NCBI GenBank assembly: GCA_965197645.1
Contig: OZ240219.1
Span: forward strand, 288,001 to 352,000
Direction: 5' to 3'
Source: Dehalococcoidia bacterium
GTDB taxonomy: Bacteria > Chloroflexota > Dehalococcoidia > Plut-88900
DNA length: 64,000 nucleotides
The notes under the pieces were generated by a model. That model had not been told where the DNA came from and did no database searches. It saw only the letters and a list, made by a program, of their open reading frames with translations. This document shows positions 7,119 through 45,584 of this stretch, piece by piece (position 1 is the stretch's first letter; each line of letters starts with the position of its first letter). The position numbers and the translations under genes are program-made.

Positions 7119-8543
7119 ATGATGCACTTCAATCGTTTGCACAACCGCTTTCTCAGCAGGTTCCCATCGCTTGAAGGCAAGAGAAGGACGGCAGAAGCGT
7201 CCCTGGTCGTTCTGCTGGGCATGCTGGCATCCCTGGGACTAATGGAATGCGGCAGCGGAGAGCCGCCTACCCCAACACCGGATAGCCTCATGAGCTCAGT
7301 CACCGATCTGTGGCCGGAATGCAACGGGGAGTTCTGGAGCCAAGCAGATGAAGATCAAGTTCAAGCCGAGTTGGATGCAGGGTTGGCGATTGATGCCGGG
7401 GTCACAGACAACTCAACACCGCTACATTGCGCGGCTGCGCTCAGTCCCAATCCAGGAGTAGTTGGATTGTTGCTCTACCGAGGGGCAGACATAGAGGCGC
7501 AGTCCGATAGTGGTATGACCCCATTACATAGCGCCGCAAGGTTCAACAGTAACCCCGCCGTGGTCGGACTGTTGCTCCGCAGAGGGGCGAACATCGAGGC
7601 AAGGGCCTTCTCCGATGACAAAACGCCCTTGTCGGTCGTCGCTCATTACACACCCTTGCACTTCGCCGCCCAGTACAACACCAACCCGGAGGTAACTGGA
7701 CTGTTGCTGGACAGAGGCGCAGACATACAAGCGCAGGGCTCTTTTGACAGAACGCCCCTGCATGAGGCCGCACGGTCCAACAGCAACCCTGAAGTTGTCG
7801 AGTTGCTGCTGGATAGAGGCGCAGACATAGCAGAGCGGGGCGCTTATGACCAAACGCCTCTGCACAGCGCCGCACTTAACGGCAACCCTGAGGTTATCGA
7901 GTTGCTACTGGATAGAGGCGCAGACATAGCAGAGCGAGACGCTTACGACCAAACGCCTCTGCACAGCGCCGCTGGATACAACAGCAACCCTGAGGTTATC
8001 GAGTTGCTACTGGAAAGAGGCGCAGACGTAGCGTCGCAAAGCGTTTTTGACCATACGCCTCTGCACTTCGCCGCTGCATCCAACAGTAACCCTGAAGTTA
8101 TTGAGCTATTGCTCGAAGAAGGCGCAGTCATAGCGTCGCGGGACCATATAGGCCAAACGCCTCTGCACTTCGCCGCTGGACACAACGACAACCCTGAAGT
8201 TATTGGTCTATTGCTCGAAGAAGGCGCAGTCATAGCATCGAGGAGCTATGACGGCGAAACGCCACTGCATGAGGCCGCCAAATACAACGACCATCCTGAA
8301 GTTATTGAGCTATTGCTCGAAGAGGGCGCAGACATAGCGTCGCGGGACGATAAAGGTGAAACACCCCTGCATGAGGCCGCCGCACGGTATGACGACAACC
8401 CTGAAGTTGTCGAGTTTCTGCTCAAGCATGGAGCGGACGTCAACGCGCGGGACACCAACGGCGAAACTCCTCTGGACCTTGCCGTAGCGGAGAATAACTC
8501 TGAGGTAATCGAGATGTTGCAGGCCTACGGATCGGGTCAGTAG
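7119..8543 (+). CDS. Ankyrin-repeat protein (11 repeats), probably exported or membrane-anchored
   Basis: 11 TPLH/TPLD..AA..N-PEVIELLL.GA repeats of ~34 aa; hydrophobic N-terminal segment followed by Cys and a PT linker; start codon uncertain. Confidence 0.9.
   Translation: MMHFNRLHNRFLSRFPSLEGKRRTAEASLVVLLGMLASLGLMECGSGEPPTPTPDSLMSSVTDLWPECNGEFWSQADEDQVQAELDAGLAIDAGVTDNSTPLHCAAALSPNPGVVGLLLYRGADIEAQSDSGMTPLHSAARFNSNPAVVGLLLRRGANIEARAFSDDKTPLSVVAHYTPLHFAAQYNTNPEVTGLLLDRGADIQAQGSFDRTPLHEAARSNSNPEVVELLLDRGADIAERGAYDQTPLHSAALNGNPEVIELLLDRGADIAERDAYDQTPLHSAAGYNSNPEVIELLLERGADVASQSVFDHTPLHFAAASNSNPEVIELLLEEGAVIASRDHIGQTPLHFAAGHNDNPEVIGLLLEEGAVIASRSYDGETPLHEAAKYNDHPEVIELLLEEGADIASRDDKGETPLHEAAARYDDNPEVVEFLLKHGADVNARDTNGETPLDLAVAENNSEVIEMLQAYGSGQ
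7410..8520 (+). repeat. Tandem ~102-bp coding repeats of the ankyrin gene
   Basis: Recurrent ACGCCTCTGCAC...AACCCTGA(A/G)GTTAT...GAGGCGCAGACATAG units. Confidence 0.85.
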
Positions 8544-9899: not shown

Positions 9900-10082
9900 G
9901 CCCCGTTCGCTGGGCTGTAACTCTTCGTCCTCAACGGAATCGGGGTATACGCGTAACGGCCTACCCAGGCCTGTCGGGAGTTTCGATGAGTGCCCCGATG
10001 CTACAAAGCCCACGAGGGCCACGCCAGCGGACGCCAGGAACAAGTTGCGTTCATGTCGAATAGAGGAAAAAGGACCGTACAC

Positions 10083-10225
10083 GAGTTCGTCTCAGAACTC
10101 TATATTGAGGGAGTCCAGAGGGAAGTTTCCCTCTGGCAGGGGGCGTGGGGGATGTTCCCCCAGTTACAAAATCGTCCGAGGGCGGGCGGTTGGGACGATA
10201 ACGTCCGAGCTTTTGCGATGAGTTC
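10083..10225. mobile_element. Degenerate MITE-like palindromic element
   Basis: Imperfect terminal inverted repeats GAGTTCGTCTCAGAA / TTTTGCGATGAGTTC; internal hairpins CCAGAGGGAA..TTCCCTCTGG and TGGGGGA..TCCCCCA. Confidence 0.5.
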
Positions 10226-10237
10226 ATACGACGCATA

Positions 10238-11368
10238 ATGGACAGCATCAAAGACAAGTGCGCCATCATCGGCATCGGCGAAACGGAGTACTCCAGGGAC
10301 TCGGGAAGAAGCGAGTTGGCCCTGGCCGTCGATGCCTCTGCCAAGGCCATTAGTGATGCGGGGCTGAAGCCCCAGGACATAGACGGCATCCTTCGCTTTG
10401 CCGTCGATACCTCCTCCGAAGACGAGGTGATGGCCTGCCTGGGCATCCGGGAGTTGACCTTCTACGGCGAGCTGGGATACGCCGGCAGCGCCGGAGCCGG
10501 GCTGGTGGCCCACGCAGTATCGGCCATAGCTTCGGGGATGGCGACCAACGTGCTCCTCTATCGGGCGATGAACGGTCGGTCGGGTCGGAGGTACGGCGCC
10601 GGTGCGGTGACCGGTAGGGGTGGGGCTGGGGCGACGGCTTTTTCCGAACCCTACGGCCTCTTGGTGCCGGGCCAGCAGGTGGCTATGTACACCCGGAGGC
10701 GTATGCACGACTACGGGACGACCAGCAGGCAGTTCGGCGCGGTGGCAGTGGCATTCCGAAAGCACGCCAATATGAACCCCAGAGCCGTGATGCACGGCCG
10801 GCCCCTGACTATAGAGGACCACCAGACCTCGAGGACCATATACGATCCGCTCAGGCTGTTCGATTGCTGCCTGGAGACCGATGGAGGAGTGGCCCTGGTG
10901 ATAACCTCCGCCGACCGGGCCAAGGATGCTCCCAATCCGCCGGCCTACATCATGGCGGCGGTGCAGAGTCTGGGAGCGGAGGTCGAAGGTCGGGGCTCGA
11001 TGAGGGAATCGGCCAAGGAGCGCTCTGCGAAGCGGGTCTTCGACATGGCGGGGGTCACGCCCAGGGACATCGACGTGCTCGGGCTCTATGATCACTTCTC
11101 TCCCATGGTCGTGTTCACGCTGGAGGACCTGGGTTTCTGCAAGAAAGGCGAGGGCGGCCCCTTCGTCGAGGAGGGGGGGATCGAGCTAGGTGGCGACCTG
11201 CCAACGAATACGGCCGGAGGCCATCTATCGGAAGCCTACCTGCACGCGGTAAACCAGTTCGTAGAGGCGGTTCGCCAGCTCAGAGGCACGTCGACGGCCC
11301 AGGTACAGGACGCCGAGTTGGCCCTCGTGGACAGCGACGGCATGGGTACCGTGATACTCAGGAGATGA
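10238..11368 (+). CDS. Thiolase-fold lipid-transfer protein (Ltp2-like aldolase)
   Basis: AIIGIGET, PLRLFDCCLETDG, LYDHF, NTAGGHLSEAYLH; lacks the thiolase nucleophilic Cys. Confidence 0.85.
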   Translation: MDSIKDKCAIIGIGETEYSRDSGRSELALAVDASAKAISDAGLKPQDIDGILRFAVDTSSEDEVMACLGIRELTFYGELGYAGSAGAGLVAHAVSAIASGMATNVLLYRAMNGRSGRRYGAGAVTGRGGAGATAFSEPYGLLVPGQQVAMYTRRRMHDYGTTSRQFGAVAVAFRKHANMNPRAVMHGRPLTIEDHQTSRTIYDPLRLFDCCLETDGGVALVITSADRAKDAPNPPAYIMAAVQSLGAEVEGRGSMRESAKERSAKRVFDMAGVTPRDIDVLGLYDHFSPMVVFTLEDLGFCKKGEGGPFVEEGGIELGGDLPTNTAGGHLSEAYLHAVNQFVEAVRQLRGTSTAQVQDAELALVDSDGMGTVILRR

Positions 11369-42250: not shown

Positions 42251-43114
42251 TTACGTTTCGCGTCGCTCCGGTAGTGCGGCGTGGGTTCCGAGGACAAGTC
42301 CGGCCTCGTGCACCTGAGCTACAAGAGAGTCCCATAGCCCACGCAATTCCTCTCTGGTGCGCTGGCGCCGCGGCCCTTTCTGAGCCTGCCAACTCCTCGG
42401 GTTGAAGTACTCACTCGGAAGGCCGATCACCGGACGTGGAAAGCCTGCATCGCCGTGCGCCGGCATCGCGGGGAAGAAGCTGAACATACCCTCTACCGGA
42501 TTGTCGGGTGTTGCTCCCATGTAGAGCCTGAACGAGGCCCTCTCGTTGTCCGTAATGGGGCCGCCGGTTACCGTGAGGAATGCCTCAGGCGCGGCGTCCT
42601 CTAGCGTCGAGCGCGCCTCCGGTGCCCTGTAGGTGAGGGAATCCGCGACCACGAGCACGGTGTCGAGCACCCACCTACGTTCGCCAGCTATTTTCCTTCC
42701 GCTCCCAAACGCGATCACCGTGCCTCGTCCGAGGTGCGCCAGGCTCGGGACGCTCCCCTGTTTGCAGTTTGAATACAGGAACCGCTCGCCGAAGATGAAC
42801 GGATCGGTGTTGTGCAACAATCGATAGTTGCTTTTGGGGACGTAGTATGGACTCCAGAGATAGCCAGGATACTGCCGGTCCTGTCGGGGTTGCTGGAGCT
42901 TGGAGGTGAGGTCCGATTCGGCTTCCCACTCGCCCCAAGCACGGAGGCTGCCGCTCCGTTCGGTGCCGTCTCCTTCGATCCATTTGCCGCGGAACTCCAT
43001 GAACTTGCGAGCGTGACTGTTGGGGAGAGTGTTCCAACCCTTCCTTCCGTTGGGATCGGGTTCATGCTCTCCGCCCGGATGAGGGAATTGAACAAAGCAC
43101 CTGTTATCGGTCAC
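42251..43114 (-). CDS. Hypothetical protein, possibly nucleotide-modification-associated (Nmad-like)
   Basis: GTG start with GGAGG RBS overlapping the upstream stop; motifs HPGGEH, WGEWE, NTDPFIFG..FLYSNCKQ. Confidence 0.6.
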   Translation of the reverse strand: MTDNRCFVQFPHPGGEHEPDPNGRKGWNTLPNSHARKFMEFRGKWIEGDGTERSGSLRAWGEWEAESDLTSKLQQPRQDRQYPGYLWSPYYVPKSNYRLLHNTDPFIFGERFLYSNCKQGSVPSLAHLGRGTVIAFGSGRKIAGERRWVLDTVLVVADSLTYRAPEARSTLEDAAPEAFLTVTGGPITDNERASFRLYMGATPDNPVEGMFSFFPAMPAHGDAGFPRPVIGLPSEYFNPRSWQAQKGPRRQRTREELRGLWDSLVAQVHEAGLVLGTHAALPERRET

Positions 43115-43880
43115 GGTGAAATACCTCCAATGCGGTCGCGCCTGCTTCTCGCTTCTGGATGTTGCCCAGCCGGCCAAGGGGCTTCTGCGCTGCGGGGATG
43201 AAGACAAAAAGTGATGGTTTGCTGCTGATCTCGCACCAGCGTACAGAAACACTCACAGGTCGTTTGCGGGGTGTGCCCTGCCCTGTTCGGTCAAACAGGT
43301 GGACGACTTGCCACCCGTTCAGGAAATTGAATTGAATGCGCGATAGATGGTGGCGCGCAACAGACAGTATCACTATTTGCGGTCGCAGCACTTTCAGTAA
43401 GGCGTGCCAGAGCGGACCGCCGTCCTTCTCGAGAGTCTCCCGCACCGTTGGGTCGAGGCGGCTCCATGTCGGGTCGGTGGCGACGGAAGAGCAGATGTCG
43501 GTATGGAGGACTGTCGAGGACTGCCCCTGATAGTAGCTCGCCTCCATGCCGTTAAGCAGCGGCTCGAACGCGCTGAACCAACCTCTATACGGATCGGTAC
43601 GGAAGTAGGCCGAGAGCGCGTCCAGGTAGCGGTCCGGCTCACTTGCCGTAACGCTCTCAGCTAGCGGGAACCGCCGGAAGGGGGACTCCGTTGGGAACTC
43701 GTGCAACGAGGGATTTAAGCCTACGGTCAGGATGCGTACCCTTGAAGAAAAGTAAACGTGAAGGTCGCCAAAGAACAGTATCGGGATGGAAGGACTGACG
43801 CGTGATGGCAGGGCGTCTGCGCGCTCGAATGCGCTCCACGCCCCCGCCACCACCTGGCTAAGGGTTGCCATCTCCTTCAA
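43104..43880 (-). CDS. Uracil-DNA-glycosylase-superfamily-like protein
   Basis: P..FFGD...RILTVGLNPS..EF motif-A-like segment, HTD, LRPQIVIL; start uncertain. Confidence 0.62.
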   Translation of the reverse strand: MKEMATLSQVVAGAWSAFERADALPSRVSPSIPILFFGDLHVYFSSRVRILTVGLNPSLHEFPTESPFRRFPLAESVTASEPDRYLDALSAYFRTDPYRGWFSAFEPLLNGMEASYYQGQSSTVLHTDICSSVATDPTWSRLDPTVRETLEKDGGPLWHALLKVLRPQIVILSVARHHLSRIQFNFLNGWQVVHLFDRTGQGTPRKRPVSVSVRWCEISSKPSLFVFIPAAQKPLGRLGNIQKREAGATALEVFHRDR

Positions 43881-43889
43881 AAAAGACCC

Positions 43890-43916
43890 ACAAGGACCTG
43901 CGTTGCAGGTCCTTGT
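43890..43916 (-). terminator. Perfect 12-bp hairpin followed by a T6 tract on the minus strand
   Basis: ACAAGGACCTGC-GTT-GCAGGTCCTTGT; function uncertain. Confidence 0.4.
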
Positions 43917-44099
43917 CCTCCTTCAACGCCATGAAAGGATAATACCCGATGGTGCCTCCCGCGTGGAACATTGCGGATGGCCCTAACCCATGCCTGCTTT
44001 CTTGCGGCAGCCCCCCGGCGTAACCTGCGACGCCGAAATGCAGCCCCAATCGTGATACAATCGGGCTGGAAGCCAACTCACGTCTCAAGGGAGGGCGAC

Positions 44100-45507: not shown

Positions 45508-45584
45508 TGGTCGGGGCGCCGGGATTTGAACCCGGGACCTCATCGTCCCGAACGATGCGCGCTACCAAACTGCGCCACGCCCCG
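45508..45584 (-). tRNA. tRNA-Pro(CGG)
   Basis: CGGGGCG acceptor stem, anticodon arm CATCG-TTCGGGA-CGATG, GTTCAAATC, CCA; TATAAT upstream at 45606-45611. Confidence 0.96.

Follow-up and report, generated by a model that had tools for sequence, protein, structure and literature searches.

The overlapping gene pair

We analysed a 64,000-nucleotide stretch of a Dehalococcoidia bacterium genome (GenBank assembly GCA_965197645.1, contig OZ240219.1, positions 288,001 to 352,000 of the forward strand), referred to here as the window, with positions counted from its first letter. Its minus strand carries two overlapping genes, gene 1 and gene 2, which we read as a probable homologue of Brig3-BapA, an anti-phage operon described in 2026 (Mejia-Pitta et al., bioRxiv 10.64898/2026.02.25.707755), that is, a 5-hydroxymethylcytosine (5hmC)-type DNA glycosylase accompanied by a sugar-removing hydrolase. 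The features of the locus are listed below.

43104..43880, minus strand: gene 1, a predicted Brig3-like DNA glycosylase of the uracil-DNA glycosylase (UDG) fold, from the open reading frame (ORF) and its translation; start at TTG 43880 (258 amino acids) or ATG 43871 (255 amino acids, protein P0001), stop TAA at 43106-43104
42251..43114, minus strand: gene 2 (protein P0002), a predicted BapA-like double beta-barrel protein of 287 amino acids, from the translation; start GTG at 43114-43112, stop at 42253-42251
43124..43128, minus strand: GGAGG ribosome-binding site of gene 2, inside gene 1 and 9 nucleotides ahead of the GTG
43104..43114, minus strand: overlap of 11 bp in which gene 1 ends and gene 2 starts, from the sequence

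The 11-bp overlap at 43104-43114, implying that translation of the two genes is likely coupled, and the GGAGG at 43128-43124 within gene 1 had both been reported in a preliminary description of this locus and are present; both genes are intact. The motifs that it quoted for the two proteins are likewise all present. In translation, gene 1 reads PILFFGDL and ILTVGLNPSLHEF, and gene 2 reads HPGGEH, WGEWE, NTDPFIFGERFLYSNCKQ and GTVIAFGS. That description had carried the element to 43944, which overshoots the start of gene 1 by about 64 bp. We consider the TTG more likely than the ATG as the start of gene 1, because many relatives are 258 amino acids long with their first residues aligned to the codons that follow the window's TTG, and because an AAGGAG abuts the ATG directly, leaving a ribosome-binding site zero spacing. 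Residues of gene 1 are numbered from the ATG (P0001) throughout.

Searches of a 90%-clustered protein collection returned 1056 relatives of gene 1 and 755 of gene 2 at E <= 0.001, and given these numbers the two are evidently real genes and not chance ORFs. Identity to the query was 52-95% among the best 120 of the 1056 and among the best 120 of the 755. Many gene 1 and gene 2 relatives agree pairwise in the length of their longest contig, a hint that both members of such a pair sit on one contig. A full scan of a 50%-clustered library found 1403 representatives of gene 2, nearly all of them unnamed and the named ones called hypothetical protein. Neither protein was matched by NCBIfam. Within one gene 1 relative (P0227) and one gene 2 relative (P0096), a conserved block occurs twice through a tandem duplication of ~60-70 residues, which may in either case be an artefact of assembly or gene calling.

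Structure models and conserved residues

The AlphaFold2 (AF2) model of gene 1 has nine helices and six strands, with a predicted local distance difference test (pLDDT) score of 78 and a predicted template modelling (pTM) score of 0.83. The best 15 Foldseek matches to it were all from the UDG superfamily (top probability 0.99, best E 3.6e-3), led by family-4 UDGs (that of S. tokodaii first, and that of T. maritima), human TDG, SMUG1 and UdgX. The Pfam UDG family (PF03167) reached only 14 bits against gene 1, below its cut-off of 24.3 (E 0.054). A UDG fold lacking the classical uracil signature, as had been suggested from the letters of gene 1, is therefore what the model and the Pfam score return together. 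The residue ahead of the conserved P-A-A-Q, a position where UDGs presumably carry a histidine, varies among the relatives.

Conservation was counted over 121 relatives of gene 1. F34, N53, P54, S55, E58 and Y95 are kept in 119, 121, 118, 121, 120 and 119 of them, and W98, F99, H123, D125, A172 and R202 in 120, 120, 118, 121, 119 and 121. In the model, R202 sits at a hairpin between strands 188-195 and 201-215, and Q229 lies in the loop at 225-236 that joins the last strand to the last helix. Position 229 is a glutamine in 108 of the 121 relatives and an asparagine in one.

Gene 2 is modelled as a mostly beta protein (pLDDT 72.7, pTM 0.80), to which Pfam gave nothing credible. Foldseek found no match to it at E <= 0.001, with ZmASCH at E 0.057; split-barrel flavoproteins among its rows were set aside for their poor root-mean-square deviation. 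In an exhaustive VIA-align search the first 19 rows were all PUA-like (Z 5.6-4.0; ZmASCH at 5.1), and the rows include PH1033, two EVE-type proteins, ZmASCH, YTH domains, N-terminal domains of archaeal McrB, VcaM4I and THYN1. A VIA-align Z under 8 may reflect a mere common arrangement, and our argument is the agreement across these rows and not the score. A comparison with PUA and EVE folds had been proposed for gene 2, and its best matches are indeed PUA-like (ASCH, EVE and YTH). Among the relatives of gene 2, D104, in the motif NTDPF, is kept in 264 of 271, and the acidic residues E62, E64 and D151 are close to invariant. Searched with the profiles A3, built on an alignment of 86 members including P0002, and A1, the PDB sequences gave no match at E <= 10.

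The resemblance of gene 2 to Nmad2 that had been noted from its motifs was not borne out: no Pfam Nmad family, including PF18753, which we take to be Nmad2, was found at E <= 1 in P0002 or in the 86 members of A3. A lead to Nmad3 (PF18754) from a protein atlas (score 0.88, 26% of one cluster) was also followed, using comparison genes from 12 genomes of the phylum. Nmad3 proteins are similar to gene 2 in size (~290-310 amino acids). However, hhalign gave the match to Nmad3 a probability of 6%, the gene 2 profiles found no Nmad3 protein at E < 0.1 and the conserved motifs differ, so Nmad3 was ruled out. Of 401 genomes of the phylum, 25 carry Nmad3 genes (PF18754; L085-L096), whose products have a motif like KIILSRKGFDS at the N-terminus and are unrelated to gene 2.

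Comparison with Brig3 and BapA

Our literature search returned only one work that describes Brig3-BapA, the preprint cited above (GenBank PX942695 for both proteins); what we report of it here follows the accessible part of its text. Brig3, recovered from a soil cosmid, is a UDG-superfamily glycosylase that excises 5hmC and blocks T-even phages, and it is active without BapA. Downstream of brig3 and overlapping it lies bapA, whose product had at first no known family, structure or function. BapA proved to be an ASCH-like hydrolase that strips glucose from glucosyl-5hmC; it releases glucose in vitro, and it did not co-purify with Brig3. In its model, two beta-barrels resemble ZmASCH. D101 is essential, whereas Gln252, which is expected to occupy the space vacated when the base flips out, is dispensable for activity.

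The structure of Brig3 draws attention to F31, N50, P51, S52, E55, Y97, W100, F101, H125 and D127, and further to R140, A174, E175, R197, N225, G229, T230 and N233. Recognition of the hydroxymethyl group and the pocket involves E55, the backbone of S52, W100 and D127. The fold comprises nine helices and six strands. R197, which is essential, lies in the beta4-beta5 hairpin, the beta6-alpha9 loop carries an asparagine wedge, N225, and R140 is dispensable.

Gene 1 and gene 2 were set against Brig3 and BapA by published residue numbers, spacing and topology. In the resulting register, Brig3 F31, N50, P51, S52, E55 and Y97 correspond to gene 1 F34, N53, P54, S55, E58 and Y95, and W100, F101, H125, D127, A174 and R197 to W98, F99, H123, D125, A172 and R202. 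The order is unchanged and the offsets run from -2 to +5. The blocks N-P-S-x-x-E, Y-x-x-W-F and H-x-D are common to the two proteins at nearly the same numbering, the spacing of 25 from the W to the H is the same in both, and the pocket triad E/W/D is shared. The placement of the hairpin arginine, the insertion loop and the count of nine helices and six strands agree with the gene 1 model, and Brig3 G229 would fall on G233 of gene 1, four residues past Q229. The counterparts of the residues found essential in Brig3 are N53, E58, W98, D125 and R202, kept in 121, 120, 120, 121 and 121 of the 121 relatives, while R138, the counterpart of the dispensable R140, is variable (R in 26 of 121). These conservation data support the published catalytic residues.

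The likeness extends to the second gene and to the layout. In both loci a UDG-superfamily gene overlaps an ASCH-like double-barrel gene that follows it. The ZmASCH-like barrels of BapA are shared with the fold matches of gene 2, at modest scores, and the essential D101 corresponds by residue number to D104. A possible counterpart of BapA Gln252 is Q243 of gene 2, a glutamine in 168 of 271 relatives; an insert of 10-12 residues present in some relatives would give BapA's Asp-to-Gln spacing. The settings differ: the published locus adjoins CBASS and Ssp genes and comes from an unassigned soil cosmid, whereas the window locus lies among metabolic genes in a Dehalococcoidia-type genome.

Two other kinds of system act on modified cytosines. 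Brig1 (Hossain et al., Nature 2024, PMC11078745, as far as the accessible part of that text goes) is a defence glycosylase of the UDG fold with patchy homologues, and its best structural match is an S. tokodaii UDG, as for gene 1. It acts alone and takes alpha-glucosyl-5hmC directly, through a Q/W/Q pocket (Q81/W122/Q147), whereas the pocket of gene 1 is E/W/D, as that of Brig3 is formed by E55, W100 and position 127. Certain modification-dependent restriction enzymes (archaeal McrB N-terminal domains, VcaM4I and PD-T4-3) share the PUA-like fold of gene 2 (Z 4.7-2.8) and also target modified cytosines in phage DNA. Their PUA-like domain does no more than bind the base, with a nuclease or GTPase attached to it, whereas that of gene 2 is larger, has two barrels and is probably catalytic.

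If the comparison holds, gene 1 would be a monofunctional UDG-superfamily DNA glycosylase that flips a 5-substituted cytosine, most likely 5hmC, into an aromatic pocket formed by F34, Y95, W98, F99 and H123. E58 would read the hydroxymethyl group, N53 and D125 would cut the glycosidic bond, and the abasic sites left behind would block replication of the phage DNA. Gene 2 would act as an ASCH-like double beta-barrel hydrolase in which D104 removes the sugar from glycosylated 5hmC, thereby producing the substrate of gene 1 and widening the range of phages hit.

A number of observations weigh against a homologue of Brig3-BapA. The register was inferred from residue numbers and not aligned. The wedge is an asparagine in Brig3, while its candidate in gene 1 is Q229, a glutamine in most relatives. 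The spacing from N-P-S to Y..WF is 47 in Brig3 and 42 in most relatives (48 in the distant L074), and from A174 to R197 Brig3 has 7 residues fewer than gene 1 has over the equivalent segment. The fold scores are modest for both proteins (Foldseek E 3.6e-3 for gene 1; best VIA-align Z 5.6 for gene 2). PADLOC-DB 2.0.0 (2023), a library older than Brig1 and Brig3, holds no family for either protein at E <= 1. Nearly two fifths of the gene 2 loci sampled below (31 of 80) have no gene 1, and the flanks of the window locus hold metabolic families in Pfam and no defence island. The hosts are uncultured, and the substrate that their phages offer may also differ from 5hmC and glucosyl-5hmC.

Because the register comes from residue numbers, the spacings differ and the wedge is a glutamine, we consider it probable, though not proven, that the pair belongs to the families of Brig3 and BapA. 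Overall, we put the probability that it is a homologue of the Brig3-BapA operon, with a 5hmC-type glycosylase and a sugar-removing hydrolase, at roughly 0.8; both chemistries, and protection from phages, are inferred for the window locus from the preprint. The preliminary description had anticipated an anti-phage module acting on modified bases, and the closest described system does act on modified cytosines; it had called the module undescribed, and the architecture is in fact that of the preprint. What was known from one unassigned soil cosmid is thereby placed in large families (1056 and 755 relatives at 90% clustering and, for gene 2, 1403 representatives in the 50%-clustered library), and annotation pipelines gain a name for two such families of 'hypothetical' proteins.

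The pair could also belong to these same two families and act on another hypermodified pyrimidine carried by phages of its hosts. Within the Brig enzymes the preprint records such shifts, with Brig1 taking alpha-glucosyl-5hmC, Brig2 modified thymidines and Brig3 5hmC, and the glutamine in place of the asparagine wedge, the indels of 5-7 residues between motif blocks and the uncultured host lineages would all be compatible with one more. The counterparts of Brig3 E55, S52, W100 and D127 and the essential aspartate of BapA are nevertheless all kept, and we regard a different substrate as improbable.

Pairing, fusion and separation of the two genes

We sampled 80 gene 2 loci from species-representative genomes to examine the company that the gene keeps. 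Gene 1 was found directly upstream of gene 2 in 48 of them, with reading frames that usually overlap; in most of these adjacent loci the tblastn alignments of the two genes overlap by 7 nucleotides. Single proteins joining both domains were also observed. Among the best 150 of the 1403 gene 2 representatives, six also match the gene 1 profile: three (P0280, P0364 and P0296) have a near-full-length gene 1 match N-terminal to gene 2, and P0347 has the reverse order, with the gene 1 domain C-terminal to the gene 2 domain. These natural fusions argue for tight functional coupling of the Brig3-like and BapA-like proteins, and the pairing of homologues that had been expected is seen both in the 48 loci and in the fused proteins.

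The other side of the sample is the 31 loci with no gene 1 match at E <= 1e-5, two of which have fewer than 50 nucleotides of upstream sequence and cannot be judged. Gene 2 is thus not strictly dependent on gene 1. Five of the 31 keep a gene 1 remnant of ~30-50 residues beside gene 2, at E < 0.01 in L021, L028, L031 and L016 and at E 0.046 in L063. In L021 (9767-10891, plus strand) most of gene 1 seems to have been lost by deletion, its first ~30 residues continuing in frame into gene 2. In L029, which belongs neither to the 48 nor to the 31, gene 1 survives as fragments only (7440-7787), 2.2 kb upstream of gene 2 (10001-10891), and was probably split by an insertion. A whole-genome search of five genomes with a solo gene 2 found no gene 1 relative in three of them.

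Gene 2 was also found with a different partner. In P0283 (441 amino acids) a TIR domain (Pfam TIR_2, E 2e-25) at the N-terminus precedes a full-length gene 2-like domain at residues 165-440, and from this domain order the protein looks like an effector joined to a sensor. Its TIR was the only extra domain identified, as those of the other fused gene 2 proteins matched no Pfam family at E <= 0.01. The accessible text of the Brig3-BapA preprint makes no mention of fusions, of a TIR fusion, of a solo helper gene or of the size or spread of the family.

We also considered whether gene 2 reads modified bases without any catalysis of its own and so guides or activates the glycosylase within a complex, a view close to the reader and excisor pair of the preliminary description. 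Reader domains are among its best fold matches (EVE, YTH, the McrB N-terminal domain, VcaM4I and THYN1), and there are natural gene 1-gene 2 fusions as well as P0283, which has the look of a sensor with its effector. The described partner is a glucose-removing enzyme, though: BapA releases glucose in vitro and does not co-purify with Brig3, which is active alone, and the near-invariance in gene 2 of the essential aspartate and of E62, E64 and D151 fits an enzyme. Passive reading is less likely than catalysis on account of these published assays and conserved acidic residues, and we hold it to be very improbable, while the TIR fusion keeps a sensing role possible for some relatives of gene 2.

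The genes next to the sampled loci offered no further constant partner. Clustering of ORFs across the 80 loci found no third gene conserved across lineages, only lineage-specific synteny. A scan of 119 neighbouring ORFs from 30 loci, which gives no per-locus count, returned mostly metabolic or housekeeping families. Single ORFs matched a type I restriction enzyme, Cas10d and Cas6d (CRISPR type I-D), McrBC and a type IV restriction enzyme; several matched methyltransferases, and two a DDE transposase family. At E 6.5e-52, one of the 119 hit PADLOC's model for type IV methyl-directed restriction. We think that this is a 615-amino-acid ORF of L016 (7880-9724, plus strand), although the scan output does not say which ORF it was. 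That ORF lies directly upstream of a solo gene 2, with a ~50-residue gene 1 remnant between the two, and its N-terminus is DUF262-like by eye.

That the helper gene often occurs apart from the glycosylase or joined to a TIR domain suggests that stripping sugar off phage DNA is a tactic used more generally in defence. From the genomes with a solo gene 2, the TIR fusion and the locus beside a DUF262-type type IV restriction gene, one might go further and see the BapA-like protein as portable, erasing or sensing DNA hypermodification for several effectors independently of Brig3. We offer this tentatively, as a possible role that is on balance unlikely. If true, the spread of gene 2 over at least 11 phyla of uncultured bacteria would mean that the communities concerned are under major pressure from phages with glycosylated cytosines.

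Distribution and mobility

The distribution of gene 2 over these phyla is very patchy. Of 201 genomes sampled evenly from the same class, two carry relatives of gene 2 and six carry relatives of gene 1, both counts including the window's own genome and three of the gene 1 matches being strong. Neither gene was found in the nine other genomes of the same family. Copy number varies, with one copy in the window's genome, three in one Dehalococcoidia genome and two in each of two other genomes. Among viral contigs only three weak gene 2 relatives were seen, at 31-39% identity.

A quick maximum-likelihood tree was built from 71 gene 2 proteins, leaving out 9 of the 80 loci whose match covered fewer than 230 profile positions. 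The window's protein falls in a Dehalococcoidia clade with a support of 99. Across the tree the phyla are intermixed: on well-supported branches the label changes at least four times for Chloroflexota and at least three times for Pseudomonadota, and a Longimicrobiales protein is sister to a Rhodospirillales protein (support 96). Given the patchy distribution and this intermixing, the pair is consistent with an accessory module that passes from phylum to phylum and is afterwards transmitted vertically within lineages.

This distribution bears on whether the pair is instead a housekeeping repair set, with a divergent uracil or mismatch glycosylase and an accessory nucleic-acid-binding protein, a reading for which the UDG fold of gene 1 and the residual uracil activity kept by Brig enzymes (10.64898/2026.02.25.707755) can be cited, but which we find scarcely credible given two and six occurrences in 201 class genomes, none in nine other family genomes, several copies in some genomes, phyla intermixed on the tree, a Pfam UDG score below cut-off and a variable residue before P-A-A-Q.

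Several Dehalococcoidia loci share further genes. In seven of them (L009, L011-L014, L039 and L066) a common 571-amino-acid ORF lies downstream, by eye resembling a large serine recombinase (in L012, 15469-17184, plus strand), and the same seven also have a 200-amino-acid ORF that looks helix-turn-helix-like by eye. This suggests carriage on an integrative element at these loci. The taxa that bear gene 2 include names suggesting association with sponges, e.g. Candidatus Poriferisocius, and we take many of these bins to be sponge-derived.

Surroundings of the pair in the window

The neighbours identified by Pfam in the window are two amidohydrolases, DUF1989, an O-methyltransferase, a cupin, a glyoxalase-family protein, an SDR, a GHMP kinase and an aspartate kinase. 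The amidohydrolases, O-methyltransferase, cupin, glyoxalase-family protein and SDR are on the plus strand and the DUF1989 gene is on the minus strand. The pair had been described as lying against the direction of its flanking genes, and it is opposed to most of them but not all, because the DUF1989 gene shares its strand. A defence-island setting, which had also been considered, is not what the flanks show, as they are metabolic. Base composition over the gene pair shows no anomaly. The sequencing runs listed include 10 DNA-type sets, from four studies, and no RNA set. No insertion boundary could be drawn in a comparison of 11 genomes of the same family, where the only matches at the DNA level were to the tRNA and to SDR paralogues.

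The region upstream of gene 1 shows no conservation among eight close relatives. It contains a terminator-like hairpin with a 12-bp stem and a T-run at 43881-43916 on the minus strand, ending right at the TTG of gene 1. There is no minus-strand gene immediately upstream that it could terminate, and the eight relatives do not share it; an attenuator or the remnant of an insertion would be possible readings. A tRNA-Pro gene (CGG) is located at 45508-45584 on the minus strand, 1.6 kb from gene 1.

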